A stretch of 64,000 nt of DNA from Candidatus Binataceae bacterium (GCA_035541875.1 DATKML010000029.1:5722-69721); one strand, 5' to 3'; counted from the first letter of the stretch, positions 2,481-18,237 are shown. Notes: generated by a model from the letters alone, not told the origin. Program-made: numbers and translations.

Positions 2481-3155
2481 TCAGTCGACCCTCACCGAGG
2501 TCAGATGCTCAACTTTGCCGTTGGTCTTGACCCGCTTACCCCGCGAGGAGGAGGCAGTCGCCGTTTTCCCGTCGGCAAGCCGGTCGCCGAGCCATCGCAG
2601 GAATTGCAGTCGCTTGCGGCGAAAGCTGGGGTCGGTCGGATCGAGTCCGGTAGCGAGGCGCGTCATTTGTGGAAACGCCAGCGGGAAGAGGGTCAGGGAG
2701 ATTATCGAGAGATGGAGTTGAGCAATATCGAGTTCAGGCGGCAGCGTGCCGGCCGTCTGGGCGCGGCGGAGCCGACCGAACGCGCGCTTCAAATATTCCC
2801 GTCGTTCGTTTTCACCGACCAGCTTGCTGGAGTTCGTACTGAGGGCTTCCCATTCGAGCAGGCGCACCCAATCGAGGTCGCTTGCGCCGGCTTCGTACCA
2901 ATGGAGAATCGCGCCGGCGAGGTCTTCCGGTGCCGATTCGAAGAAATCCGCGCGTGCCGTGAACTTACGCCGCAGAATCTCGCGATAGAGATTCTCCTTG
3001 GAGCCGAAGCAGTAGAAGATCATGCGCTGATTCACGCGAGCGCGGCGTGCGATAGTGGCACATCGCGCACCGGCAAGGCCGTGCGCAGCAAACTCGGCTA
3101 GAGCTGCTTCGAGGAGTCGTTCACGAGTACGAGCAAGATCGCGAAGCTGGGCCAT
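2481..3155 (-). CDS. TetR/AcrR family transcriptional regulator
   Basis: N-terminal HTH RERLLEAALAEFAAHGLAGARCATIARRARVNQRMIFYCFGSKENLY; translationally coupled to the MFS pump downstream. Confidence 0.85.
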   Translation of the reverse strand: MAQLRDLARTRERLLEAALAEFAAHGLAGARCATIARRARVNQRMIFYCFGSKENLYREILRRKFTARADFFESAPEDLAGAILHWYEAGASDLDWVRLLEWEALSTNSSKLVGENERREYLKRAFGRLRRAQTAGTLPPELDIAQLHLSIISLTLFPLAFPQMTRLATGLDPTDPSFRRKRLQFLRWLGDRLADGKTATASSSRGKRVKTNGKVEHLTSVRVD

Positions 3156-3209
3156 CGGAACCTAACACCCCGGGCCGGCGTGGCCGCGGCTCGCGGACGC
3201 GCCCGCTCC

Positions 3210-3290
3210 CTGTCTCTGAAGGGAAGGGTTAAGAGACAGAAGTATTAACTGTCCACTTAATACTATTCAGTGGATGGTTAATACAAGGGC
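3210..3290. promoter_or_regulatory. Putative operator/promoter region of the tetR-MFS operon: inverted repeat CTGTCTCT-N14-AGAGACAG (3210-3239), nested palindromes AGTATTAA/TTAATACT (3241-3265) and three TTAATAC copies
   Basis: Read directly from sequence, 55-135 bp upstream of the tetR start; TetR-family repressors bind palindromic operators in their own promoters. Confidence 0.35.
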
Positions 3291-3311
3291 ACGAAAGGAC
3301 CCTCACCCTAG

Positions 3312-3333
3312 CCCTCTCCCATCGGGGAGAGGG
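3312..3333. terminator. Hairpin CCCTCTCCC-atcg-GGGAGAGGG downstream of the hydrolase gene; no clear U-tract
   Basis: Perfect 9-bp stem immediately 3' of the 3354..5096 gene on the minus strand. Confidence 0.3.
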
Positions 3334-3353
3334 GTCCAGAGGAGGAGATGCCG

Positions 3354-5096
3354 TTAACGTCTTGCCGGGATTACCGGTAGCGTCAGATAGGACGCATTGG
3401 CGCGGTTGTGCAGAATCGTCTGAATCGCGGGCTGCGTCTCGGCGTCGGCGAAGAGATCGTGCCCCGTGTTGGGATTCCGATCGAAGCGCGGGAAGTTGCT
3501 CGAACTTACCTCGAGCCGAATACGATCACCCTTCTTGAAGAGAATCGAGGTCGACCACATATCGATCGTGTATTCGTAAACCTTCCCCGGCATTATCAGC
3601 TTGGGATCTGATTTCGATTCGCGCACGCGCGCCCGGATGATGCCGTCGGTGAGATTCATCGCAGAGCATCCGCATGGGCCGACGCTGACCAGCTTGGCTG
3701 TAAAGTCGGTGTCGGGCGCTGACGATGACGCAGAGAGAGTGAGCGAGACTGGTCCGGTGATTTCCGTATCCTCGGCCAGCGGCTCGGTCGTGTAGACGAG
3801 CACATCCTCGCGCTGCTCCAGCGCCGTTTGATCGAACGCACCGCCCGGCACTGCATTGTGATAGCAGCAGAGACCGCCGCCGTTGGTCGGTACCGGATTT
3901 AATGGATTGTAGAGAAAACAATCTGATGGTTCGTTGCCGGGTTGATCCGTCGAGAGCGCACCGTCACCGTTGAGGCTATTGGCGCGGCCGCGGCTATGCA
4001 GATAGTAGCGGCGGAAATCGGTGCCGGGCAGCGGCCAATCCTTCTCTTCACGCCAGCTGTTCGCGCCGATGGTGTAGATACTTACCGGGCCTTCGTTATC
4101 GGCACCGTTGTTGATCCCCTTCAGCCAGTGGTCGAAGAAGTTGAGCTGCTGGCCGTCGAAATCAATCGAGACGAAGCTAGCGCGGAAGCCCATATCGGCC
4201 TGACCGATAAGTCCCGTAAGCGGCAGATTGTGATACCACGGCCCCATCACGAGACGTGCCTTGCGACCGTTGCCCGGCGCCTTCGACCGCATCCCCATGT
4301 AGTTGCGAACTGTGCCGCCCGCGAAGATGTCGTACCATCCGCCGAAATTGAGCGTCGGCACACTGATCTTGTCGTAGTACTCCTCGATGCAAAGTTTCTT
4401 CCAGTAGCTGTCGTAGTACGGATGTTCGAGCCAGTCGTAGAAGTAGGGCGCGCCGGTGCGGAAGAGCGGAAAGTCCTTGAGCGGCAGATGCTTCACGATC
4501 TCGCGCATCGTATCGATATTGCTCATCGTGAGCGCCAGCTCTTTGCCTGCGGCCTCGCTGTCCTCGCGCTCGCGGATCAGGCGGGCGAGCGAAAGGTTCG
4601 TCATCAGCCAACTGACGTTGAAGAAGAGCGAGAACGCGCCACCCTGATAGGTCCAGTTGTCATGATAGTTGCTGGCCGTGATCGAAGGCACCATCGCCTT
4701 GAGCGAGGGGGGGGTCTGAGTCGCTGCGAGCCATTGCGTCGCGCCCATATACGATGCGCCGAACATCCCGACCTTGCCGTCAGCGAAGGGCTGCTTCGCG
4801 AGATGCTCGACCGTGTCGTAGCCGTCCAGCGGATCATCGGTGAAGCAGTTGAAGACTCCCGGCGAGGCATAGCGGCCGCGCGAATCGACGAAGATGACGT
4901 TATAGCCGCGCTGCGCCGCGCGTATCGGATCGAGGGTGTTGTACGAAATCTGCGGGAATTTCTTGTCGTAAGGCGTGCGATTCAGCAGCACCGGCAGCTT
5001 TTCAGGCGTGTCGGGCCGAAACAGATCGCCCTTTAGTAGGCATCCATCGCGCATCGGAATTTCGATATCGCGCTCGAAAATTACTTTCGCTCCCAT
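3354..5096 (-). CDS. CocE/NonD family alpha/beta hydrolase (X-Pro dipeptidyl-peptidase S15-like)
   Basis: 580 aa; N-terminus MRDGCLLKGDLFRPDTPEKLPVLLNRTPYDKK...GYNVIFVDSRGRYASPG...FGASYMGATQW is the CocE/NonD hydrolase signature, with a C-terminal beta-sandwich. Confidence 0.85.
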   Translation of the reverse strand: MGAKVIFERDIEIPMRDGCLLKGDLFRPDTPEKLPVLLNRTPYDKKFPQISYNTLDPIRAAQRGYNVIFVDSRGRYASPGVFNCFTDDPLDGYDTVEHLAKQPFADGKVGMFGASYMGATQWLAATQTPPSLKAMVPSITASNYHDNWTYQGGAFSLFFNVSWLMTNLSLARLIREREDSEAAGKELALTMSNIDTMREIVKHLPLKDFPLFRTGAPYFYDWLEHPYYDSYWKKLCIEEYYDKISVPTLNFGGWYDIFAGGTVRNYMGMRSKAPGNGRKARLVMGPWYHNLPLTGLIGQADMGFRASFVSIDFDGQQLNFFDHWLKGINNGADNEGPVSIYTIGANSWREEKDWPLPGTDFRRYYLHSRGRANSLNGDGALSTDQPGNEPSDCFLYNPLNPVPTNGGGLCCYHNAVPGGAFDQTALEQREDVLVYTTEPLAEDTEITGPVSLTLSASSSAPDTDFTAKLVSVGPCGCSAMNLTDGIIRARVRESKSDPKLIMPGKVYEYTIDMWSTSILFKKGDRIRLEVSSSNFPRFDRNPNTGHDLFADAETQPAIQTILHNRANASYLTLPVIPARR

Positions 5097-5277
5097 CAGC
5101 AGGTCCTCCAGTTACGCCGGATATTTCGATGCTTGTAACGCGGGCAGGTACGATGGAGCAAGGGAACCGAAACCCTGGAGTGGGTCGCGCGGGAGAGGTA
5201 GGCCGAGTTGGAGTCGGTTGGCAACGCCGCGCCGCCGATTCTATGATGACGTAAAGTTCAAGCAGGAGTTCCCAACG

Positions 5278-6210
5278 ATGCCAGTTGATGCTGAAATCGC
5301 CGCGTTCCTCAAACAGGCTGCCGATTCGGGTGCGCCACCGCTCGAGAGTTTGCCGGTGCCGCAAGCCCGCGAGTTCATCCGCTCGCTGTTCGCGCCTCCG
5401 GGAGCTGCACGAACCGAGGTGAAGAGGGTCGAAGACCGCAAGATTGATGTGAACGGCACCTCGTTGCCGATCCGCATTTACACGCCGGCAGGGGAGGGAC
5501 CGCTTCCAGTCCTTGTTTACCTGCATGGCGGCGGATGGGTTATCGGCGACGTCGAGGGTTACGATCCCGTATGCCGCGATCTCTGCAAAGGCGCAGGAGT
5601 GGTTGTCGTGTCGGTCGATTATCGGCTCGCTCCGGAGCACAAATTCCCGACTCCGGTCGAAGATTGCTACGCCGCGACCAAGTGGGTCGCAGCGAACGCT
5701 GCATTGATCGGTGGCGACTCGACTCGCGTGGCGGTCGGTGGCGATAGCGCGGGTGGTAATCTCAGCGCGGCTGTCGCGCTGATGGCGCGTGATCGTGGCG
5801 GCCCGTCCTTGAAGTTCCAACTGCTCGTCTATCCCGTGACCGATCACAACCTCAATACCGGTTCCTATCGGGCCAACGGCGAAGGCTATCTGCTGACGAA
5901 GGCCGGGATGGATTGGTTCTGGAATCACTACATCGGCAAGCCGGGCGACGATGCCAACCCGTATATGTCACCGCTCCGTGCCGCGAATCTGAGCAATCTG
6001 CCGCCTGCGCTCGTGATTACAGCGGAGTTTGATCCGCTCCGGGACGAGGGTGCTGCCTATGCTGAAAAGCTCAAAGGAGCGGGCAACAAGATCACCTATA
6101 CTGATTACAAGGGTGCGATCCACGGCTTCTTCAGCCTCGGTTATATGTTCAAGCTCGGCCGCGACGTGATGGCGGAGGCCTGCGCTGCGCTTCGCACTGC
6201 GCTGAAGTAA
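5278..6210 (+). CDS. Alpha/beta hydrolase fold-3 esterase/lipase (HSL family)
   Basis: HGGGW oxyanion motif (VYLHGGGWVIGD) and GDSAGG nucleophile elbow. The true start is the ATG at 5278; the 4975 ORF-track start is an artefactual extension overlapping the upstream gene. Confidence 0.85.
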   Translation: MPVDAEIAAFLKQAADSGAPPLESLPVPQAREFIRSLFAPPGAARTEVKRVEDRKIDVNGTSLPIRIYTPAGEGPLPVLVYLHGGGWVIGDVEGYDPVCRDLCKGAGVVVVSVDYRLAPEHKFPTPVEDCYAATKWVAANAALIGGDSTRVAVGGDSAGGNLSAAVALMARDRGGPSLKFQLLVYPVTDHNLNTGSYRANGEGYLLTKAGMDWFWNHYIGKPGDDANPYMSPLRAANLSNLPPALVITAEFDPLRDEGAAYAEKLKGAGNKITYTDYKGAIHGFFSLGYMFKLGRDVMAEACAALRTALK

Positions 6211-6220
6211 GCACGTGCCC

Positions 6221-7075
6221 ATGAACCATCCGATCCGTTTCGGGGTGCAGACCCCGCAACAGCATACGACCTGGCCCGAGATTCTCTCGCTGTGGCAGGA
6301 GATCGATACGCTTGGCTATGACACCGCCTGGGTATTTGATCACTTCCTGCCGATCTTCTCGGATCCGACGGGACCTTGTCTCGAAGCCTGGACGGCGCTG
6401 AGCGCGCTGTCGATGGCGACCAAGCGGGTCCGCCTCGGCGTGATGGTTACCGGCAATACCTATCGCTCACCGGCGGTGCTAGCGAAGATGGCCACCACGG
6501 TCGATATCGTGAGCGGCGGTCGGCTGATCCTCGGCATCGGCGCCGGATGGTTCGAGCAGGAGCATCGCGAATACGGCATCCCGTTCCACACCGTCGGTGG
6601 GCGCCTGCGACGGCTCGATGAGTCAGTGCAGATGATCAAGCAGCTCTGGACCGAGGAGCGCGCGAGCTTCAAGGGTCGCTACTATGAATTGCGTGAGGCG
6701 AACTTCAAGCCCAAGCCGATCCAGCAGCCATATCCGCCGATTCTGATCGGCGCGACCGGCGAAAATATGGCGCTCGGCATCGTCGCCAAGCACGCGCAGA
6801 TCTGGAATTCCTTCGGTACGCCCGATGTGTTCCGCCACAAGATCGCGCGGCTGACTGATCACTGTGAGCGGATCGGTCGCGATCCAGCATCGATTGAAAA
6901 GTCGGTACTAGTGACAGGCGGGTTTGCGATCAATGAGGCGCGTAAGCAGATTGACGAGTACATATCGGCCGGCGTGACACATCTGATCTTCTCGCTCAAT
7001 CCATCGAACGCCGAGCATCGGATGTTCGTGTCTCGCTTCGCAGCGGAAGTAATACCTCAGTTCAAAGCGATCTGA
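6221..7075 (+). CDS. LLM-class (luciferase-like) F420/flavin-dependent oxidoreductase
   Basis: RFGVQTPQQ...DTAWVFDHF...GGRLILGIGAGWFEQEH pattern typical of LLM class F420-dependent oxidoreductases. Confidence 0.8.
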   Translation: MNHPIRFGVQTPQQHTTWPEILSLWQEIDTLGYDTAWVFDHFLPIFSDPTGPCLEAWTALSALSMATKRVRLGVMVTGNTYRSPAVLAKMATTVDIVSGGRLILGIGAGWFEQEHREYGIPFHTVGGRLRRLDESVQMIKQLWTEERASFKGRYYELREANFKPKPIQQPYPPILIGATGENMALGIVAKHAQIWNSFGTPDVFRHKIARLTDHCERIGRDPASIEKSVLVTGGFAINEARKQIDEYISAGVTHLIFSLNPSNAEHRMFVSRFAAEVIPQFKAI

Positions 7076-7128: not shown

Positions 7129-10100
7129 CTATTTGTCGGAACCTTTCAGCACAGTCTGCGCATTACCGGCAAGGGAATGCCCGTAAGCATAGTTGTATTG
7201 GAGAGTTTCCGGCGGCACCGCGCCCGGCGACGCATTTGCTTGTGGTGCAAATTCAACTTGTACCGTGCACTTTTTGACCGGAGGTGAAGCCTTCGGGTCG
7301 AGGATCGAGCCCGAGCAAAGGTCAGTGCCCGATACTATTGCGAAGTTTCCTGCACTAAACGCTTTGCCGGTGATCGTGACACTGACAGGTGAGTTGTTGG
7401 TTATCGTCAGCGTTTTCGGAGCGCTTCGATTACCCCGTGCGGTTAGCGGAAAACTCGATACTTTTGGCGCTGCGAGTGTTACCGGAATCGGAATTCCAGA
7501 CAGCGTCATGTTAGTGATGCCACCGTCATGCGGCACCGTCAGCGTCCTGGTTTCGAGTACTCCGGTCGGTGTCGTCGGCGTATAGGCCAGGCCGAAGCTG
7601 CACTTCTTCTTCGGTGCCAGTGTCACTCCCGAACAGAGGTTGTTGCTAATAGTGAAGTCCGATGAAAGGGCGGCCGCCGGCGGAACGATCAACCCAATCG
7701 TGGAGTTCGCTTTGCTCGCGTTGACAATCGTTACCTTGTGAACCTTGCTTGACGCGCTCGCGTAGACCTTGCCGAAGTTAAGTTTTGCCGGAGTGATCTT
7801 CAGATTGGCTAGGACCGTCGGCGTTGGCGACGGAGTTGGCGTTGCTGTCGCCGTCGCGGTGGCCGTCGGTGTCATCGTTGCTCCCGCGGTGGGAGTGGCC
7901 GTTTTGGTCGCGGTCGCTGTGGCGGTTCGCGTCGGCGTAGCGGTCGCAGTTCGAGTCGGGGTCGCTGTCGCAGTTCGAGTCGCTGTGGCCGTGGGAGTTG
8001 CTCCACTAGTTGATGTCGCAGTCGCTGTCGGAGTGTCCGTTGCCGTAGCGCTGCCGGAGGGCGTTGCGGTTGCAGTTACAGTCGCCGTGGCTGTGGGTGT
8101 CGCTGTTGCGGTAGCCGTTGCAGTTCGTGTCGCGGTAGCCGTGGCAGTCGCGGTAGCAGTCGCCGTAGGTGTGGGCGTCAATGTCGCAGTCGGCGTGGGC
8201 GTCGGAGTTGGGGGGGCCACTGCAAAGTGGTTGGCCACCTGGATGGAGCTGAGCGCATACGAGTAGACCGCCGCCTCGCTCACGCTTCCACTGAAAGCGG
8301 CGCTCGAGGGCGAGTTGGGCCATGCGGCCATGGTGCCGTACCCGACACGCCAGTAGCCAGCATAGTTAGACGGAATCGAATCGGTATGCGAAGCGATCTG
8401 AGCCCCATCAACATACAGATAGATATGGGTGCCGTCCCAGACGCCTACAGCATAATGCCAGTTGCCGTCGTTGTAAGCACTCGGAGAGAGAAGACCAAAG
8501 GTCGAGCTTCCACTGTTACCAAAAACGATATTACCCGCATTGGTCATGTAGAGCATCCGGTCGTAATTCGAGGTTCCGAGGCCGGTTTGCGCTTGCTGGA
8601 AGCCGATCAGTTTGCCGCCGCTGGCATAGCCATTAGCGGTTTTGAACCAAATTTCGATCGAGTACGGTGTGGGATTGGCGTATTGCATCGAGCTCGAAAC
8701 ATAGCCAGTCGAGCCGTCGAGCAGCACCGCTGTATCGCCGGTCTTTGCTGCGCCGGCAGCTCCGTAGGTTATTCCGCCGTTGAAACTCCCAAGGTCGAGC
8801 GGCCTTTGATATGTGCCCGTGTTCGAGCCCGTAGAATCGAAAGCGACGGTGCTGTTCGCTTCGTTGAGTTTCCAGTAGTAGCTCGGGGCATCAGCGAGAA
8901 CCGTAGCATCGTAGGATCCGCCAGCGGCTGCACTGAAGTGCGCCGCGACCCGACTCGAACTTAGGGCGGCTCCATAAACGGCCGCTTCACCGAGGCTGCC
9001 GGCGAAATAGGGGCTGGTAGGCCCGTTCGGCCAAAAATTGGTCTGACCGTAACCCAAGCGCCAATAGCCGCTGTAATTGACCGGCGCTGAATCGCTCAAC
9101 GATGCGACCTGCGTGCCGTCGATATACAGATGAGAGGCCGTTCCATCAAAGGCGCCTACAGCATGATGCCAGTTGCCGTCGTTGTAGCTGCTGGGCGAAG
9201 TAATTCCTGCGGTGGTTGTGCCGCTGTTGCCGAAGATGATCTTGCCGGCGTTGGTCATGTAGATCATACGGTCATAGCCCGCAGTGCCGAGTCCGGTCTG
9301 ATCTTGCTGGAAGCCGATCAGTTTGCCGCCCAGGCCGTAGCCGCTGGCTGTCTTGAACCAAACTTCTAGAGAGTAGCCGGCGGACCCGGGGTTGGTCAGT
9401 TGAATTGAGGTACTGACGTAGCCGTTGTTACCGTCGAGAGTTATCGCCGTATCGGGCGAAGTAGGCCCGGTTACGCCAAGCAGAACCTTCGGCGCCGAAT
9501 CTTGCGCAGTCGATCCACTCGATTCGTTGAGGCGCCAGTACACATCCGGTGAATCACTCATGACCAAACGGGCGTAGGCGTTCGGTGTAGCCGTAGGCGC
9601 TGCCGCCGTGGGTGTCACTGTTGGGGTAGCGGTCGCGGTGCGCGTCGGTGTGCCGGTCGGCGTGGTGGTGGCGGTCGCTGTTACAGTTGGCACTAGCGTA
9701 GGTGTCGCTGTAGCCGTGATCGTGGGCGTAGCGGTCCGCGTGGATGTGCTGGTCGCGGTAGCAGTGGCTGTCGTCGTGGGAGTCGGTGTTCCAGTCGCAG
9801 TTGAAGTGGCAGTAGCCGAGGCCGTCGCTGTTGGTGTGATCGTCGCAGTTGCGGTAGCGGTTCGTGTCGCGGTCCCGGTCGCTGTGGGCGTGACCGTACT
9901 AGTGGCTGTTGCAGTTGAAGTGCTGGTCGCAGTTGAAGTGGCAGTAGTAGTCACTGTCGGCATGATGGTCGCGGTGGCGGTGGCGGTTCGCGTCGCGGTA
10001 GCGGTCGCAGTTGCTGTTCTCGTTGCTGTCGCCGTTGCGGTAGGTGTTGGTGTCGTTGTAGGTACGGCTGTTGCGGTGACCGTAGCCGTCGCCGTCGGAG

Positions 10101-10734
10101 TTGGCGACAGGCTATTGATAAAAAGTTTGTCGATAGCAAAATCGCTGGTCGAGCATCCGGTTCCGGTGCAAGCCGTCAGGCTAAAGGTGACTGACGTGAT
10201 ATTCGTGCCGGAGTTGTCGTTAAGACCAAGGTAAAACGAATCGCCATTGGCGTTACTTGCCTGCGTGAAGCTGCCCAGCGAGGTGCCGTTATTGAAAGCC
10301 TCGATTTTAGCGGTGAAGGCACCGGAGGCATCGGCCTTGATCATCGCACCTGCGCCCGCGACCGGACTGGCGAAGGTTATCTGTAAAGGACCGTTACCGC
10401 CGTTGTAATCATCTGAAGTCCAGATCAGCGTATCGCCCGCGGTAAAACCCGAGACCCAGCTACACGGAGTAGCTGAACAGACCACGGCGGTCAGGCTGTC
10501 TGGTCCTGCGAGTGTCACCGTGACACTCTTACCGCCGGTCGTTGTGGCCGGATTCGTGGTGGCCAGCAAGGTCGCATCGGCACCCAGTTGCGACCAATCG
10601 ACCGTGTCGGTTGCGTTCTGCGCAGCTGAACTCGTCACTTGGACCAACGAGTCCGTCCATGCCGGCGGATTTGCCAGCAGTACAACCGCTAACGCTCCCA
10701 GTATCCAGGGCCAGATACGCTTGAGGCTTTTCAT
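7129..10734 (-). CDS. Giant secreted multidomain protein (~1200 aa): signal peptide, conserved ~180-aa Cys-containing N-domain, T/A/P linker, two tandem LamG-like (concanavalin-type) jellyroll domains, T/A/P linker, two C-terminal choice-of-anchor-D-like Ig-type domains
   Basis: Signal peptide [21 protein letters not shown] (start moved to 10734). N-domain shares [12 protein letters not shown]...[10 protein letters not shown]...[20 protein letters not shown] with the 12495..13124 protein. LamG-like repeats carry [10 protein letters not shown]...LDGNNGYV...NDGNWHH and [10 protein letters not shown]...LDGSTGYV...NDGNWHY. The C-terminal pair aligns with the C-terminus of the 14668..18237 protein. 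There is no PEP-CTERM, LPXTG or T9SS tail. Confidence 0.8.
7800..8240. repeat. Degenerate GC-rich short tandem repeats encoding a Thr/Ala/Pro linker ([19 protein letters not shown]...)
   Basis: Reiterated gtcgcggtagcggtcgcagt-type units; the antisense frame gives the spurious VAVAVAV ORF 7769..8266. Confidence 0.7.
8240..9530. repeat. Intragenic tandem duplication (~640 bp x2) encoding the two LamG-like domains
   Basis: DNA-level repeats, e.g. atgccagttgccgtcgttgta at 8461 and 9167, and gatcagtttgccgcc at 8611 and 9321; protein repeats are ~55-60% identical by eye. Confidence 0.6.
9530..10110. repeat. Degenerate GC-rich tandem repeats encoding the first Thr/Ala/Pro linker (~190 aa)
   Basis: Protein segment [42 protein letters not shown]...; the antisense frame gives the spurious ORF 9608..10234. 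Confidence 0.7.
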
Positions 10735-10763: not shown

Positions 10764-11975
10764 CTACGAGCAAACGGCCTGAGTCGTTGTAAAGGTGCCG
10801 TTATTCGAATACTTGCCCCCGCTTCCGATGGACGGAGACTGGCGGAAGAACCATGAGTAAAAGGCAAGCTCCTGCAGATCGTAGGTGGTTCCGTTTGGCA
10901 TCAGCACCGATGTGAAGTTGGTGCCGCTGAGCGGATCTCCAACTTCAAGATTCGTTTGGCATCCCGACACTTGGCCGATATGCCCCCAGCTAGGCGTCGG
11001 ATTCGTGCCGAGCGGATCGTCCATCCACTCGCCCACTTCGTGTGACGCCGTCGTATTATCGGCGTGCGCACTAAGGTTGAAGAGTTCGGTACTGTCAAAA
11101 TCTAAAGGCGAGTAGGTTTGCAGGCTCGCGAGGGTTCCGTACGCCCCGTGATAACCAAGAATACAACAGTTGTTGGTTGGGCTGGACGAGACGAAAGGTG
11201 CCGCCTGAACCACGTTATGCATCAGGAAGATCGGGAAGGAGGTCGGGCCTACTCCACTGCTCGAGAGAGCGGTGATTTGTGCCTTGATGGCGCTGTCGAG
11301 CGTGGAGTAGTCGACGATACCCAGGCGCATCGATTGCGAAACGCCGTTGCATGCACCGCTGTAGAGTCCCGACGTTCCTAAGCCACTCGGGATCGTAATC
11401 GTGATTGGCGAAAGGGTCGTGACGTTGAGCAGTGTGTGATAGCGATCTCCGGTCGCAGAGACATTACCCGGCGAGCTGTAGAAACTGGCTCGTTGGAACG
11501 CGTCGACATATTGGGTCGTGCCCACGTTGACGCCGTTCATCGAGTAGGAAGCGTTGTTGAAGAGGGGCGACTGCTGAAACAGGGTCGTTGGGACTTTGCC
11601 GCCGAGGCAGGTATCGGCGATGGTTGGATCGAAGGTCTTGCCGTCGGGCGTCTTGATGATGGTCGGTATTAGATAGACCTGAATCGTCGTCGTGCGCATC
11701 CCGTTGTAGAATGGACTCCGACCAACCATCGAACCGGTGTAGGTGAGCCCGTTCACCGGCGAGGTGATTGAGTAATTCCACATCGGAATGGTGGTTGAGG
11801 ATACGACCGCTGACGCCACCTGAGCCTTCGTCATGCCGGTCAGCGGTTTGACGGTGTAGTAGCCCTGGAGCTGCTCTGTGCTCTGCGCATCAGCTGCGCG
11901 AACTCCTAAGCCAAGTCCGGAGCAAAATATTGCTATGAAACCTAAAATGGCTCGATGAGTAGATATCTTAGCCAT
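10764..11975 (-). CDS. Secreted ~400-aa protein of an uncharacterised family (paralog A) with an invariant [11 protein letters not shown] motif
   Basis: Signal peptide [25 protein letters not shown] with a GGGAGA RBS before the ATG at 11975. Throughout the length it is ~50% identical to the 13157..14413 protein (YxVKPLxGMT, [33 protein letters not shown][VI][18 protein letters not shown]). Its stop lies 30 nt before the start of the giant N-domain protein. Confidence 0.75.
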
Positions 11976-12444
11976 AACCGTCCGATTATCTCCCGATACG
12001 TGGTGTCTAGTTCCCAAGCATCGAATTACAAACTCAATCATCGGCAAGCATGTCTACAAGTTTAAACGAGTAGTAATGCTAGCTCTGATTCAATACTGCA
12101 CCTAATCTTAGGCGTTAGTCGTGCAGAATAGAACCCGAAAAGAGATTAGATGTTTAGAGATAAAAATTTAGGTTTAGGCATTTTTACAAAGCTTTCTTAG
12201 GCTTTGTTGGTATTAGTCAGCCGCTGATCGGCTTGGGGCGATGAAGAGCCACAGAATCTTTCGAGCGGGCTTAATTAAAAATGTGGGAGGCGAGCGATGA
12301 TCGTCGCCGTCGTGACCGCCTCGCACTTCAGGTTAAGGGGGAATCGGAGCCGTCGCGGCCCCTAACCCGGCAAGGCGGCCGTATCACGCGGTAACCCGAT
12401 AGAGCCTCGCACGAGGAGGGACTCCTGGAGCGAGGCTTTCGATC

Positions 12445-12475
12445 GGGGCGTTTCTCGCGAGCCGTTAAACGCCCC
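12445..12475. terminator. Hairpin GGGGCGTTT-ctcgcgagccgtt-AAACGCCCC, part of a three-hairpin GC-rich element at 12331-12476
   Basis: Perfect 9-bp stem just 3' of the 12495..13124 gene on the minus strand; see finding. Confidence 0.4.
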
Positions 12476-12494
12476 TGAAATTGGGGAGCCTCTC

Positions 12495-13124
12495 TCAGTG
12501 GGAGGTCTGGTTGACCTGGACTTTGTCGACGGCGAAGTCGGCGCAGCTCGAGAATTTTGGGCAGCTGCTCAGGCTAAAGACCACGCCCGTGATATTGGCG
12601 GCGGTGCTATCGAGCACGCCGATATAGATAGGATCCCCTGCTGTATCGCTCTTTTCGGTAAAGCTCTTCAGCACCTTGCCGTTCTGACGGGCTTGTATCT
12701 GTGCGGTGAACTGGCCGGGAAGATCGGCTTTGATGAGCGCCCCAGCCCCAAAGACGGGGGTTGCGAAAGTGAGGGTTAGGGGTCCATTGCCACCGTTGGC
12801 GTTATCCGAGGTCCAAAGCAGCGTATCGCCTGCGGTGAAGCCGGTTCCCCAGCTGCAAGGTGTTGCGGTACAGACCACCGAGGTCAGGCTGTTACTGCCT
12901 TTGAGTGCGACACTGACGCCATTGTTCAGCGCTGTATTTGCGGAGAACGACGCATTCAACACGGTTGCGTCAGCACCGAGCTGCGACCAATCGATCGAGT
13001 CGTCCGACTTCTGATTCGTTTGGTCTGTGATGAGCGTGAGCGTATCGGCGCGAGCGCTCGAGTTGAGCAGCACCGCGAGAGTCAGTCCCAGAAGCCAGAG
13101 GAATATGCGTTTGCCGTTGTTCAT
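12495..13124 (-). CDS. Small secreted protein (209 aa) consisting only of the conserved Cys-containing N-domain found at the N-terminus of the giant 7129..10734 protein
   Basis: Signal peptide MNNGKRIFLWLLGLTLAVLLNSSARA, then [16 protein letters not shown]...[56 protein letters not shown]...ITGVVFSLSSCPKFSSCADFAVDK, collinear with residues ~40-220 of the giant protein. Confidence 0.75.
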   Translation of the reverse strand: MNNGKRIFLWLLGLTLAVLLNSSARADTLTLITDQTNQKSDDSIDWSQLGADATVLNASFSANTALNNGVSVALKGSNSLTSVVCTATPCSWGTGFTAGDTLLWTSDNANGGNGPLTLTFATPVFGAGALIKADLPGQFTAQIQARQNGKVLKSFTEKSDTAGDPIYIGVLDSTAANITGVVFSLSSCPKFSSCADFAVDKVQVNQTSH

Positions 13125-13156
13125 GGTTCGATGCTCGTTGTGCTCGATTCCGAGGC

Positions 13157-14413
13157 CTAGCAGATCGGGCCGGCGTCAGTGCCAAAAGAGCCGCTATCAG
13201 AGAAAAGCCCTCCGGCAGCCATCGAGGGGTTCTGGCGATAGAACCACGAGAAGAACGCCAACTCCTGCACATCGTAGGTGAAGCCATTCATCACGATTGA
13301 AGGAAAGTTCGAACCACTAAGCGGATCGCCGACTTCGAGATTACCCTGGCAGCTACCGATCGTTTGGCCGAACCCTCCCCAGAGCGGAGCTGCATTGTTT
13401 GCAGTGCTCTTAACGCTGGCGGAAGGAACCGGATCGTCCAGCCACTCACCAATCTCATGTGAAGTCGAGGTGAGATCGACGCCGGAGCTGGGATCCCACA
13501 AGCCGGTAGTATCGAGATCCGCCGCGGCATAGGTCTGGACCTTGGCGAGACTCCCGAGCGCGCCATGGTAGCCGAGGATGCAGCAGTTTTGCGTAGGATC
13601 ATTCCGAACAAAGGGGAAAGACATTACGACATTGTGTGTCATGAAGAGCACAAACGAGGTCGGTCCGACGCCACTCTTCGCCAGCTTGGGAATCTGGGTT
13701 TTGGTCACGGCCTTGTCGAAGGTCGCGAAGTCGATAATCGCGGTCTCTTCGTGGTTGCAGGTGTTCGAAAAGGTGCCGTGAACGCCCTTTGTAGAGGGTA
13801 CGGAGATCGTTATAGGGGAGGCCATCGTGACGTTAAACAGCGTGTGATACCGATCGCCGGTTTTGCCGACGTTGCTCAGCATTCCTCCCGATGAGTTGTA
13901 GAAGTTGGCGCGCTGGAATGCATCGATGTACTGAGTAATTCCGATGAACTGTCCATTAATCGTGTAGTTTGCATCGTTAAACAGCGGCGATGCTTGCATC
14001 ACATCGACCGGGGTCTTGGTACTGCTCAGGCAAGCCGAGTCGATCTGGGTTGGGTCGAAGGTTGTGCCATCGGATAATCGGATAATTGTGGGAACCACAA
14101 AGACCTGGATGGTCGTCGTGCGCATCCCACCAGCCAACGGACTGCGTCCTACCATCAGCCCCTGATAGGTCTTCCCATCGATCGGTGAGACGATCGAATA
14201 GTGCCACATCGGGATAGTGCCCTTGACGGCGGTGGCGGTTCGCACATCGTCGATCGTCATACCCTCGAGCGGCTTCACGGCGTAGAACTTTTGAGGGCGT
14301 TTGGCGTGGGTAAAAGTGAAGGCCATCGCCCCCGACGCCGTCACGAGAAACGTGACAACCGCGGCCGCGATAAGAATAAGCGCGACGCTCCCTTTGAATG
14401 CAGCCTTGTGCAT
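13157..14413 (-). CDS. Secreted ~418-aa protein, paralog B of the SHE[VI]GEWxDDP family
   Basis: Signal/TM segment MHKAAFKGSVALILIAAAVVTFLVTASGAMA; AGGAAA RBS 10 nt upstream; SHEIGEWLDDP motif; 33-nt spacer to the downstream N-domain gene. Confidence 0.75.
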   Translation of the reverse strand: MHKAAFKGSVALILIAAAVVTFLVTASGAMAFTFTHAKRPQKFYAVKPLEGMTIDDVRTATAVKGTIPMWHYSIVSPIDGKTYQGLMVGRSPLAGGMRTTTIQVFVVPTIIRLSDGTTFDPTQIDSACLSSTKTPVDVMQASPLFNDANYTINGQFIGITQYIDAFQRANFYNSSGGMLSNVGKTGDRYHTLFNVTMASPITISVPSTKGVHGTFSNTCNHEETAIIDFATFDKAVTKTQIPKLAKSGVGPTSFVLFMTHNVVMSFPFVRNDPTQNCCILGYHGALGSLAKVQTYAAADLDTTGLWDPSSGVDLTSTSHEIGEWLDDPVPSASVKSTANNAAPLWGGFGQTIGSCQGNLEVGDPLSGSNFPSIVMNGFTYDVQELAFFSWFYRQNPSMAAGGLFSDSGSFGTDAGPIC

Positions 14414-14667: not shown

Positions 14668-17600
14668 TTATTTGGCCGTCCCCTTGAGAGTTACCGAGAC
14701 GCTTCCGTTGAGCACAGGACCTGAGCCATAGCTGAACGGATAGGTCAGGGTCTCAGGTGTCACCGGCCCGGACGGCCCATCTGGTTGGAAAGCCACCTGC
14801 ATCGTGCACTTTTTGCTCGCTGCCGGAGGTGGTCCTAACACGGCGTTGGTGCACTGATCGGCGCCGTGGACTAACACGAAGTTCGTCAGTGAGCCAGGAG
14901 CTCCTACAGTTATCGTCGCTCCCGACGTATTCGTGATCGTGACCGTCTTCGGCTTGCTCAAGGTGTTGATTGCGGTCGCCGGAAAGCTCAGGGTTTTGGG
15001 CGCGCTGACGGTCGGCGCGATACCAGTGCCACCCAGGCTGACCTGCAGTGGACCCGCTCCGTTGTAACTAATCGTGAGGTTGCCGCTCACAGACGGGCTG
15101 CTCACCGCGTTCGGCGCGAACGCTACCCCAATTTTGCACGATCGCTTGAGCGATAATGTGCTCGTACAGGTGTTCGACGCTATCACGAACTGCGAGATCG
15201 GCGCCGCCGAGTTCACGCCGGTTATATTCGCGTCGACCTTGCCACTGTTGATGATGGTCACCAGTTTTGGTTTCCCGGTCAGACTTGCGGTCACTTTGCC
15301 GAAGTCGATCTTGGTCGGCGACACTTTCAACACCGCAGGCGAAGGCACACCGGTCGGCGTCGCAGTTGGTGTGGCAGTTGCCGTCGCTTTTGACGTGCTG
15401 GTCGCCGTAGCCGTTGGAGTGGCTGTGCGCGTGGCCGCAACGGTCGGCGTTGCCGTGGCTGTCGGGGTCGCGGTTCGCGTCGGCGTCGCGCCCGAGGTCG
15501 CAGTGGCCGTCGCGGTTGCGGTCGGCAGGCCTGTCACGCCCGGTGTCGGGCATGGCGATGAATCGGTGCTCGTCGGATTGAGTACCGTCAGGAATGCATT
15601 GGACGACGCGTTGGCATCTGCGTTGTTGCTCTTCTGAAAGCCCGTCGTAGTCGTCGGAAAATCGGTCGAGAAGGTGAGCCCGGCGATGACCATATTGCCG
15701 TTCGGGTCCAGCTTTCCACCGGACGCAACATCGAGTTCACCCGAGCCACCAAGCAAACTGGAGTACAACAGTTGGTTTTTCGAAGTACTCAACTCCGCGG
15801 CAAAACCAGTAATAGGGATGTTGTACTGAAGCGTCCCGAGAACAGGAAGGTTAACGTCGAACGGAAAGCCGCTGGTGTTGTTCGTCTTGAAGCAAGCGTT
15901 GGCGGAGAGCGGAAAGGTTGATCCGGTTGAAGCAGCGCTGGCCGTGGCCCCAACGAAGTACACGTTACCACCGACAACTTGGAGGTCCGTCACTACGTCG
16001 CCAAAGCCGACTCCACCCGTGCACGGCGCCGGTGCCGTTATCTTATAACCGGTTCCGCCGAAGTAGGTGGAGTACAGGAACTGCCCAACGCCCGGGGCTA
16101 AACTCGGGTCGATTTCGGTGAGGAAGCCAGTCGTGGCGGGTGCTCCCGAGGTAACAGCGGCTTGGTTGGTCGATTGGAAAACGGGCATGACAGATCCAGG
16201 TACAGGGAAATTGCCTGTCGAAGCGGTGAATCCGGCCAGCCAGATTTTGTTGGAGCTATCGACCGCGACTGAGGTAGCGACATCGCCGACCGCGAAGAGA
16301 TTAACTTTGCTCCCCAGACAACTGACTAATCCCTGACTGCCGTTACCACCCTCGTAGGTCGCGTAAAGTAGTGAGGCGGCCCCGCTGGCACTCGGATTGA
16401 ACTCGGTGACGAAGGCGTTGCTGGTCTTGTTGACCTTACCGTTGTAGTTAGGCTGCGCCGCATTTTTTGTTGTCAGCCCGGTCAGGGAGTAAGTTGCGCC
16501 GGCGATATACCCATTACCATTGGCATCGACCGCTATCCCTATTCCCGACTCGGAGTTAGTGCCGTTACCATTACCGCCATAAAGTGTTGCGTAGTCCAGC
16601 GACTTGCCATCCTCGTGGACCACGAGAAAAGTTGCCTGACTCTTTCCACTTGTGGCCAAGTTGGTCGATTGGAATGCGCTCGCTGTTGTGGGAAAGCCTG
16701 TGGTGCTGTCGCTTTGTGTGCTGCCTGCAACATAAGCTTTACAAGCCGCTCCAACTCCACACCCGGAGGGGAATAGAGCCACGCGTGATTCGGTGGCGTT
16801 ATTTTTGCCGGGGACAAAGCACGAGTAGACCAAGCCACTGCCGTCGGGTTTGAGCTTGATAACGAACCCATTGTTCGTCGCCGCTGAGCTTTGGTTCATG
16901 CTGCTTCCCCACGCACCACACAGTGATGAAGGTGGACCCGGAAAATCCGATGGGGAGTAGGTTTGCCCGACAACGAAAGCGTTACCTCCGGCGTCGACCG
17001 CGATGCCGAAAGCAAGGTCGCCGTCGCCGCTGCCGACCGAACTCGTATCACCACTGCCGCCGAAGTAGGTCGAGTATACTAGGGATGCTGCCCCGGATTT
17101 CGAGTAATCGAATTTGCTAACGAAAGAATTCGGATTCGAAGAGGCTGCCGCGTTTTGGCTGGTTTGGAGAACGCCGGTGCTAGTTGGAAAATCCGTGGAA
17201 TAAGCGACGCCGGTCACCCACGCGTGGTTGGCGTTATCTATCGCGACGTCAGAGCCGACGTCAGCCACAGTTAGGGCAGCACCTCCGGTAACGCCCGCAA
17301 ATTGCTCAAGGTTTACGGTGCCGGTGATATCGCCGGTACCTCCGATATAGCTCGAATAGACCAGCTCTACGCCGGGATCGATTACGAGGGTGCGGGTGCG
17401 ATCATAGGCGGCTAGCTGAAGGCCGATCTCGGTGGTGGAGGCTTTTTTCCGCATCGCGAACTTGCCGTCGATCGGATCGCGGGTACCGTCGGCGCGGGTC
17501 TGGTAAATCACGGGATTGCGGATCATCAGGCTGCCGGCAACCGCTGCCACGTGGATATTGCCGTCGCTGTCGACGTTGGTGGTGCCATCGCCGTCGATTA

Positions 17601-18237
17601 TCAACTTGATTTTTGAGACGTCGGCTCCCGGCTTCGCGACAATGTCGTACTCGAGCTTGTCGGGTGTGCCGTAATAAACGACATCAACTCCCGGATAGAC
17701 CTCTTCCAGTTTAACTTTGCCGAAAGTGGGAATACTACGATGGTACTTGGTCGGATCGGCGCCGATCAGGTAGTTGACCCGCGCCTGGAGCGGTTCGAGG
17801 GGGGCGTACTTCGGATGAGCGTTGCCGCCTGCGAAACGCACCCGGATATTCGATTCAACGAGTCTGTCTTCGGGCTTCTGCTGTCCTGTAATCGAATAAA
17901 ATTGTGGTCCCTTGTGGATTGTGCCACCGACCATCGAGACCAGAGTTCCCTGATCACCAAGGAACACCGTGGAACGTGGTGTTCGCGAGAGGTAGTGGAC
18001 GCTCGGGTCGGATTGGCCGTCGTTGCGCTCGAAGTAGAGCGGCAGTGCGGCAAACTTCGCTATCGCCTCGGTCCGGCTCATCGTATTGTGATCGAGCGGA
18101 TTACCGACGGACGGCTGCGACGCTCCGGCCACACCGCGCGAATGGATAAAGGTTCCTAGGGCGATAGTGACGACTATGGCCGAAGCAAAAGTCAGCTTCC
18201 TGCGACGCAGGGTCGAGGTGACAGTAGAGAAAAGCAT
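14668..18237 (-). CDS. Giant secreted SBBP (beta-propeller) repeat protein with a T/A/P linker and two C-terminal choice-of-anchor-D-like domains
   Basis: 1189 aa; signal/TM N-terminus. Repeated YSTYFGGSGD..GIAVDAGGNAFVVG..S.DFP-type units (SBBP repeat, PF06739-like). The C-terminal ~225 aa align with the C-terminus of the 7129..10734 protein (KVSPTKIDFGKVT..., CTSTLSLKRSCKIGVAF, KKCTMQVAFQP). Confidence 0.8.
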   Translation of the reverse strand: MLFSTVTSTLRRRKLTFASAIVVTIALGTFIHSRGVAGASQPSVGNPLDHNTMSRTEAIAKFAALPLYFERNDGQSDPSVHYLSRTPRSTVFLGDQGTLVSMVGGTIHKGPQFYSITGQQKPEDRLVESNIRVRFAGGNAHPKYAPLEPLQARVNYLIGADPTKYHRSIPTFGKVKLEEVYPGVDVVYYGTPDKLEYDIVAKPGADVSKIKLIIDGDGTTNVDSDGNIHVAAVAGSLMIRNPVIYQTRADGTRDPIDGKFAMRKKASTTEIGLQLAAYDRTRTLVIDPGVELVYSSYIGGTGDITGTVNLEQFAGVTGGAALTVADVGSDVAIDNANHAWVTGVAYSTDFPTSTGVLQTSQNAAASSNPNSFVSKFDYSKSGAASLVYSTYFGGSGDTSSVGSGDGDLAFGIAVDAGGNAFVVGQTYSPSDFPGPPSSLCGAWGSSMNQSSAATNNGFVIKLKPDGSGLVYSCFVPGKNNATESRVALFPSGCGVGAACKAYVAGSTQSDSTTGFPTTASAFQSTNLATSGKSQATFLVVHEDGKSLDYATLYGGNGNGTNSESGIGIAVDANGNGYIAGATYSLTGLTTKNAAQPNYNGKVNKTSNAFVTEFNPSASGAASLLYATYEGGNGSQGLVSCLGSKVNLFAVGDVATSVAVDSSNKIWLAGFTASTGNFPVPGSVMPVFQSTNQAAVTSGAPATTGFLTEIDPSLAPGVGQFLYSTYFGGTGYKITAPAPCTGGVGFGDVVTDLQVVGGNVYFVGATASAASTGSTFPLSANACFKTNNTSGFPFDVNLPVLGTLQYNIPITGFAAELSTSKNQLLYSSLLGGSGELDVASGGKLDPNGNMVIAGLTFSTDFPTTTTGFQKSNNADANASSNAFLTVLNPTSTDSSPCPTPGVTGLPTATATATATSGATPTRTATPTATATPTVAATRTATPTATATSTSKATATATPTATPTGVPSPAVLKVSPTKIDFGKVTASLTGKPKLVTIINSGKVDANITGVNSAAPISQFVIASNTCTSTLSLKRSCKIGVAFAPNAVSSPSVSGNLTISYNGAGPLQVSLGGTGIAPTVSAPKTLSFPATAINTLSKPKTVTITNTSGATITVGAPGSLTNFVLVHGADQCTNAVLGPPPAASKKCTMQVAFQPDGPSGPVTPETLTYPFSYGSGPVLNGSVSVTLKGTAK
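15343..15570. repeat. GC-rich tandem repeats encoding a T/A/P linker in the SBBP protein
   Basis: Protein [64 protein letters not shown]; the antisense frame gives the spurious ORF 15074..15637. Confidence 0.65.

Follow-up and report, generated by a model that had tools for sequence, protein, structure and literature searches.

A duplicated pair of genes for secreted proteins

We analyzed a 64-kb stretch of DNA, hereafter the window, from a metagenome-assembled genome (MAG) of a soil bacterium of Candidatus Binataceae. The subject is a duplicated two-gene module in which a gene for a protein of family 1 is followed on the same strand by a gene whose product begins with a domain of family 2. 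Searches with hidden Markov models (HMMs) found exactly two family 1 and two family 2 copies in the window, which make up module A (A1 and A2) and module B (B1 and B2). Database proteins identical to window proteins are VMT61_09715 and VMT61_09710. The features of the two modules, with lengths in amino acids (aa), are as follows.

13157..14413, minus strand: B1, family 1 copy B, 418 aa with an N-terminal signal peptide, a putative zincin-like metallohydrolase
13430..13459, minus strand: putative active-site motif of B1, HEIGEWLDDP (H319-P328), from the translation
12495..13124, minus strand: B2, family 2 copy B, 209 aa, consisting only of a signal peptide and a predicted beta-sandwich domain like that of carbohydrate-binding modules (CBMs)
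about 12504-13016, minus strand: family 2 domain of B2
10764..11975, minus strand: A1, family 1 copy A, 403 aa from the ATG at 11975 (family 1 HMM, E 4e-176)
11013..11042, minus strand: putative active-site motif of A1, from the translation and the invariance of the motif in the family
7129..10734, minus strand: A2, a multidomain protein of 1201 aa, from its open reading frame (ORF)
10078..10626, minus strand: family 2 domain of A2 (family 2 HMM, E 7.5e-75; translation)

A1 and B1 are 55% identical over 380 aa (E 2e-148), in agreement with an earlier note on this DNA that had taken them for paralogues of about 400 aa. The start of A1 was set by alignment with homologues; the ORF itself reaches a TTG at 12047. 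B2 is 53% identical to the first 210 aa of A2 (E 2e-66), which bears out the note's proposal that both partner proteins begin with the same domain. As read directly from the sequence, the intergenic gaps are 32 nucleotides (nt) between B1 and B2 and 29 nt between A1 and A2, so that the short same-strand spacing given there as 30–33 nt holds and its exact values are slightly revised. The motifs that had been quoted are present in the translations of the family 1 copies and of both family 2 domains, among them HE[VI]GEW[ML]DDP at 11013-11042 (A1) and 13430-13459 (B1), and NGGNGPL in both family 2 domains. The C-terminal cysteine pair of family 2, given previously as CxxxxxxC, had to be corrected to C-x5-C in B2 and C-x4-C in A2; these cysteines are not conserved in a divergent branch of family 2 with PEP-CTERM anchors. 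The two window copies are sisters in the trees of both families, and the module was therefore duplicated as a unit.

The two protein families

Family 1 comprises more than 2,811 clusters at 90% identity, every one annotated as hypothetical, and at least 563 relatives among species-representative genomes. Its members come mostly from Binatia and Acidobacteriota (Terriglobia), with a few from MAGs of Actinomycetota, Dormibacterota and Proteobacteria. Neither A1 nor B1 matched Pfam, NCBIfam or the PDB sequences. No peptidase family was matched when 38 aligned members were scanned at E values up to 10, nor did the family 1 profile match a peptidase in the PDB.

The sequence H-E-x-x-E-x-x-[DN]-D-P is invariant in 86 of 86 diverse family 1 sequences, including those of clades that have no family 2 partner; in B1 numbering its invariant residues are H319, E320, E323, D327 and P328. 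Equally invariant across this set are H283 (within CCILGYHGA), E360 and D363 (within NLEVGDP), Q383, D164 and R168, together with several cysteines. Because the invariant motif departs from the HExxH rule, annotation pipelines miss family 1 entirely. Searches of the literature found no publication on family 1 and no precedent for an HEXXE motif, and those on Acidobacteria PEP-CTERM proteins and metalloproteases and on Binatia peptidases returned nothing relevant. The spelling 'HEXXE' does occur in print for CLCA1 and for fungal M35 peptidases, where it proved to be a loose or erroneous form of HEXXH and not a precedent; the metal site of CLCA1 uses His156/His160/Asp167. A likeness between the N-terminal 'YxGGP...VxxVFWG' and the plant EXORDIUM/PHI-1 proteins was dropped, as Pfam Phi_1 was unmatched in all 38 + 14 members scanned and the literature held nothing on it.

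An AlphaFold2 model of family 1 was built from 38 sequences, with a predicted local distance difference test (pLDDT) score of 71 and a predicted template modelling score (pTM) of 0.76. It represents family 1 as a soluble alpha/beta protein, and is confident in the core (residues 100-170 and 190-320). In the model the H-E-x-x-E motif lies on a helix (residues 315-324) that follows a beta-sheet and stops just before the D-P turn, a predicted position that matches the topology of the active-site (HExxH) helix of zincins.

We compared the motif with those of two groups of zincins. Metzincins have the extended zinc motif HExxHxxGxxH/D, and gluzincins of the thermolysin type combine HExxH with a downstream Glu in an ExxxD motif. 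Family 1 proteins are like fragilysin BFT-3, the ADAM/adamalysins, archaemetzincin and ulilysin in being secreted and disulfide-bonded, and in the predicted placement of the H-E dipeptide on a helix after the beta-sheet, at the place of HExxH. They differ from these proteins in that they have no sequence similarity to them and no structural similarity recovered by Foldseek, in an additional N-terminal region of about 160 aa, and in the motif itself: the second His is replaced by the invariant Glu, position 8 is D/N rather than Gly, and there is no His/Asp at position 11. A second His or a Gly at position 8 was found in 0 of the 86 sequences. Family 1 also has no invariant Met for a Met-turn, none occurring among the columns at least 93% conserved downstream of the motif, although residues 327-364 are poorly modelled and a non-conserved equivalent Met is possible.

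The HExxH of gluzincins is absent, its place being taken by HExxE, but the invariant acidic pair E360-x-x-D363, located 37 residues past the motif, recalls their downstream Glu and ExxxD. The spacing is ExxD rather than ExxxD, the region is modelled with low confidence, and no sequence or profile match links gluzincins to family 1. Family 1 thus fails the sequence tests that define metzincins and gluzincins, yet, judging from the model, plausibly shares their scaffold.

In family 2 proteins a domain of about 170 aa comes after the signal peptide (A-x-A, then D). This domain is confidently modelled as a beta-sandwich with a beta-jelly-roll fold, and in this predicted fold it resembles CBMs. Its conserved aromatic residues are W46, W92 and W104. 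No Pfam or NCBIfam family was matched, hence no membership of a CBM family by sequence, and the PDB sequences gave chance-level similarities only (best E 0.07, to trypsin). The view that both families are uncharacterized is therefore upheld by the profile searches, in which neither had a Pfam, NCBIfam or PDB sequence match.

The family 2 domain is N-terminal in 258 of the 261 proteins collected, and what follows it varies widely. The tail may be missing, as in B2 and homologues of 180-245 aa, or consist of Thr/Pro/Ala-rich linkers, of Laminin_G_3 domains (A2), of one to many immunoglobulin (Ig)-like domains of the choice-of-anchor D type, of Big_3_5 or Flg_new_2, or of a PEP-CTERM anchor. The anchor (PF07589) belongs to the divergent branch; B2 and A2 themselves do not have a PEP-CTERM end. 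A2 contains, in order, a signal peptide, the family 2 domain, a Thr/Pro/Ala-rich linker, two Laminin_G_3 domains, a second linker, and a C-terminus of tandem Ig-like (choice-of-anchor D-like) domains. Its description as a LamG/choice-of-anchor D protein was confirmed for the first component (115 bits against a Pfam cut-off of 27.6); for the second, both Choice_anch_D (28.1 bits against 45) and Cep192_D4 (26.8 against 35.5) remained below the curated cut-offs.

Among the three proteins in which the domain is not N-terminal is P0408, a fragment of 1139 aa that also contains DUF4082 and has three tandem divergent family 2-like domains (342-528, 628-815 and 914-1095) with repeats between them. Note that the 18,323 matches obtained when representative genomes were searched with a family 2 alignment cannot be used to size family 2, because that profile included the Ig-like tail (positions 200-302) and unrelated giant proteins with Ig repeats dominate the count; the same search did bring to light the fusion protein P0393 described below.

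Conservation of the pairing across genomes

To survey the pairing, family 2 was looked for within 6 kb of family 1 in 79 genome loci. All 22 of the loci closest to the query (L001-L022) have family 2 downstream of family 1, and it lies directly downstream in three of three homologues picked only for their long contigs. In 27 distinct paired loci from Binatia and Acidobacteriota, family 2 starts between -25 and +137 nt from the family 1 stop. The reversed order, with a family 2-PEP-CTERM gene preceding family 1, was found in three loci (L085, L089 and L091), two with an overlap of 4 nt and one with a gap of 39 nt. The adjacency that the earlier note had seen in one genome thus extends to two phyla, to both gene orders and, as described below, to a fusion. 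Its term 'strictly conserved' applies to part of the family: the pairing is confined to a single clade of family 1, in which it seems to have been lost once (L024), and many Terriglobia members, as well as some family 2 genes, are unpaired.

The paired and unpaired proteins differ at two places in the alignment. Arg98 (B1 numbering) is invariant in the paired clade, whereas unpaired family 1 proteins have Gly in 43% and Arg in only 2%; and an insertion of about 16 residues near B1 residue 113, present in about 70% of unpaired proteins, is missing from the paired clade. These are candidate determinants of a partner interface, too little in themselves to define one. Among the unpaired genes, those at L025, L060, L066 and L080 are present in two or more copies, in tandem or close by, in several genomes of Terriglobia, which points to lineage-specific expansion of a stand-alone enzyme. 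One of the loci with reversed order (L085:2564-6955; ENA WOOD18 scaffold_316) contains a divergent family 2-PEP-CTERM gene (2564-3262), a Peptidase_S8 gene (3264-4619), a second family 2-PEP-CTERM gene (5001-5714) and family 1 (5711-6955). The position of a family 2 head beside an unrelated serine protease hints that this domain may be a more general partner of proteases.

The pairwise distances of the two families are correlated (Mantel r = 0.76), a value reached by 0 of 2000 permutations. Such co-divergence would be compatible with an inhibitor, chaperone or immunity partner, family 2 binding family 1 in the periplasm and either holding it inactive or aiding its folding or secretion; that the neighbor of the metzincin-like enzyme is small, secreted and beta-rich, whichever gene comes first, would fit as well. 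We consider this quite improbable. Most family 2 domains head long multi-domain surface proteins or bear PEP-CTERM anchors, architectures that disfavor a periplasmic inhibitor or chaperone; many family 1 clades have no partner, so that folding and secretion would generally be independent of family 2; and family 2 is also found without family 1 nearby.

The two families also meet within single polypeptides. P0393 (1103 aa; locus L092) has a family 2 domain at 572-754, with an Ig-like domain upstream of it; in its N-terminal region FCAYH, SSHEMVEAVTD, GEIGDIC and Y-x-V-Q-x-x-W-S-N...C follow one another just as the signatures of family 1 do. This single N-terminus had no significant match to family 1 by hhalign. 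Homology was detectable only once a profile of 17 relatives of the region had been built, here called family 1-like, with the signature FCAYH ... SHExxEAxTDP ... GEIGD. Its hhalign match to family 1 (88% probability, E 3e-6) covers YH ... SHExxExxxDP ... W ... E[IV]GD, and a wide family 1 HMM matched several family 1-like sequences directly (E 4e-6 to 5e-4). From these profile comparisons the branch appears to be a distant homologue of family 1; no Pfam or PDB match was found for it (14 members in the Pfam scan). Family 1-like regions are fused in cis to Ig-like (L095), TIG (L100) or family 2 domains (L092 and L094), and at L092 and L094 a canonical family 1 gene lies directly upstream of the family 1-like/family 2 fusion. 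One branch therefore carries in cis the same kinds of non-catalytic module that the other obtains from a neighboring gene. The fusions have the layout that is usual for an enzyme with targeting modules.

These fusions bear upon a second explanation, in which family 2 is a recognition handle or pro-domain and family 1 a protease that cleaves, matures or releases its neighbor. Systems with a conserved N-terminal domain recognized by the product of an adjacent gene offer an analogy for such a logic; family 2 stands right after the signal peptide in the 258 of 261 proteins mentioned above, ahead of highly variable and often very large C-termini, the modelled fold of family 1 resembles that of endopeptidases, and the close spacing of the two genes is conserved. 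Stand-alone family 2 proteins (B2 with 209 aa; L016 with 245 aa), however, have no cargo to release. The frequent overlap of start and stop codons suggests a roughly equimolar co-production that is commoner for subunits than for an enzyme and its substrate, and the single-chain fusion of family 1-like with family 2 suits a modular enzyme better. We therefore regard processing of a target as unlikely; among the options that the earlier note had left open, an enzyme with an anchoring or targeting partner is favored over a protease with its target.

Aside from families 1 and 2 no gene recurs at these loci: no third conserved neighbor (secretion, Dsb or regulator) was found across 30 of them, and the other recurrent clusters of neighbors are antisense shadow ORFs or reflect synteny among close relatives. 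In two loci (L001:3405-4529 and L002:1541-2665) one family 1/family 2 pair has a gene for a SurA_N/DsbA-type thiol-disulfide oxidoreductase about 1.5 kb upstream; this neighbor is suggestive, as both proteins are Cys-rich, but is not recurrent across loci.

A third explanation is that a secreted enzyme and an adhesin or CBM-type protein are merely co-regulated, act independently of each other, and have spread together by descent and transfer. Each family does exist elsewhere without the other, and shared ancestry alone can yield a correlation of distances. Independence is nevertheless disfavored, because the adjacency has been kept across two phyla at roughly 45–50% identity and has outlasted inversion of the gene order and repeated replacement of the family 2 tail, because the module was duplicated whole and the pairing recurs as a fusion with a distant paralogue of family 1, and because the neighborhood is otherwise without conserved genes. 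We judge it improbable. Taken together, the survey supports the earlier proposal of a functional couple formed by two uncharacterized families: neither has a known Pfam hit, and the adjacency occurs elsewhere. With the pairing kept in two phyla, it is very probable that the two proteins act jointly.

The surroundings of the two modules in the window include the following further features.

14668..18237, minus strand: DUF7948 surface protein of 1189 aa (Pfam DUF7948, 170 bits), directly upstream of B1
11976..12494, minus strand: spacer of 519 nt between the modules, read directly from the sequence

In the order of transcription, all on the minus strand, the DUF7948 protein is followed by B1, B2, the spacer, A1 and A2. 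The DUF7948 gene lies outside the conserved module, as no third gene recurs across the 30 loci. At their C-termini its product and A2 (7129-7950) share about 260 aa of tandem Ig-like domains that are 42% identical (E 2e-36), and because of this identity we take the tail of A2 to be an interchangeable module; both proteins terminate in ...LKG[TS].K, resembling a shuffled surface-protein cassette. The inter-module spacer is unusually long. Just 3' of the B2 stop it contains a GC-rich hairpin of 9 bp (GGGGCGTTT / AAACGCCCC, 12445-12475) followed by an AT-rich stretch, and from this arrangement it probably splits the modules into two transcription units. No Rfam match was found in 11976-12494, and a consensus promoter/terminator scan of it gave nothing significant. 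Long Val/Ala/Gly-rich ORFs on the plus strand (7769-8266, 9608-10234 and 15074-15637), antisense to the Thr/Pro/Ala linkers of A2 and the DUF7948 protein, are shadow ORFs of these repetitive linkers and not genes; equivalent ones are present in 19-25 related loci. The PADLOC models of anti-phage defense gave no match, and the sole match to the PHROGs phage models was at chance level (E 0.018).

Proposed mechanism and comparison with known systems

The interpretation we favor, to which we give somewhat less than an even chance, is that of an extracellular metallohydrolase with a separately encoded targeting or anchoring subunit. Each module would encode a two-subunit extracellular enzyme. Family 1 would be the catalytic subunit, a Sec-exported, disulfide-containing protein of zincin-like fold and most likely a peptidase, in which the H-E-x-x-E-x-x-[DN]-D-P helix and turn, H283 and E360-x-x-D363 would form a metal/catalytic site in place of the canonical HExxH. 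Family 2 would be a non-catalytic beta-sandwich head, supplied by the linked gene, that binds the enzyme and gives it targeting or anchoring, either through the domain itself (glycan or surface binding) or through the interchangeable C-terminal tail. On this model, duplication of the whole module would have given the window a soluble version (B1 with B2) and a stalk-mounted surface version (A1 with A2).

Several observations weigh against this interpretation. With no sequence-level tie of family 1 to any peptidase family in Pfam, NCBIfam or the PDB, we infer both its fold and its activity. The model is only moderate overall (pLDDT 71), residues 327-364, which contain E360 and D363, fall below a pLDDT of 50, and a Foldseek search of the PDB with it gave nothing significant (best E 0.3; profragilysin at E about 2). 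Some 50 further family 1 genes, most of them from Terriglobia, lack family 2 within 6 kb and have no downstream neighbor that is conserved; since most members outside the paired clade are without family 2, the enzyme does not intrinsically need a partner. Family 2 in turn occurs without a nearby family 1 at L087, L088 and L090, and the co-divergence of the two families also follows from simple co-inheritance. Lastly, B2 and several homologues are bare domains without an anchor. Because of these bare-domain partners, anchoring is not a universal role and targeting or binding by the domain itself must be invoked; a pure anchor role is disfavored for the same reason, as is the release of a cargo.

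A more far-reaching reading, possible but doubtful, is that family 1 and the family 1-like branch together constitute an unrecognized superfamily of extracellular metallohydrolases, abundant in soil Acidobacteriota and Binatia, of which one clade has an obligate docking subunit in family 2. Its ligands would be His/Glu/Asp (or Glu), contributed by H-E-x-x-E-x-x-x-D-P and E-x-x-D on a zincin-like scaffold, and its metal or chemistry may be different from that of classical zinc peptidases. Family 2 would dock the enzyme on stalked or PEP-CTERM surface proteins, a new two-component display of degradative enzymes.

Few soil bacteria are as abundant and as little cultivated as Binatia and Acidobacteriota, whose extracellular enzymes drive the turnover of organic matter in soils. 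If active, family 1 would extend the ligand arrangements of zincins by a new one, and inventories of soil metagenomes would gain a large group of secreted hydrolases that has so far gone uncounted. The conserved CBM-like head that accompanies it, encoded in trans or fused and equipped with swappable anchors, provides a testable model for the targeting and display of such enzymes, and the two families are a ready pair for biochemical and structural study.

The proposed arrangement can be compared with several known systems. Two-partner secretion (TpsB/TpsA) resembles the family 1/family 2 pair only in its genetic logic: family 1 is predicted to be a soluble alpha/beta protein rather than an Omp85 barrel, and family 2 a beta-sandwich rather than a beta-helical protein. 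Operons of a protease and its partner include serralysin with the inhibitor Inh/AprI and the metzincin CpaA with its chaperone CpaB. Here too a secreted enzyme, predicted to be of metzincin type, has an adjacent gene for a small dedicated partner, but family 2 bears no resemblance to Inh or CpaB and usually heads a large surface or PEP-CTERM-anchored protein. The dockerin-cohesin system of cellulosomes is a functional analogy only: there, as is proposed here, an anchorless catalytic subunit is combined with a separate protein that has a conserved binding domain and variable anchor or spacer modules. There is no homology to cohesin or dockerin, and the putative system described here consists of one-to-one gene pairs, not multi-enzyme scaffolds.

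A further comparison is with CBMs and jelly-roll domains such as CBM22, CBM4, DUF4465/BtuJ and the gingipain K1 'cleaved adhesin' domain. Like these, family 2 accompanies an extracellular hydrolase, in this case a putative one, and has conserved aromatic residues; it differs in having no match to a CBM family and in being mostly encoded in trans, as a polypeptide separate from the enzyme. Neither family is annotated or, within the searches made, described. Zincin-like hydrolases and CBM-like accessory domains are familiar as kinds of component; the new variations are an invariant HExxE...DP site and a conserved head-domain partner that is encoded in trans.

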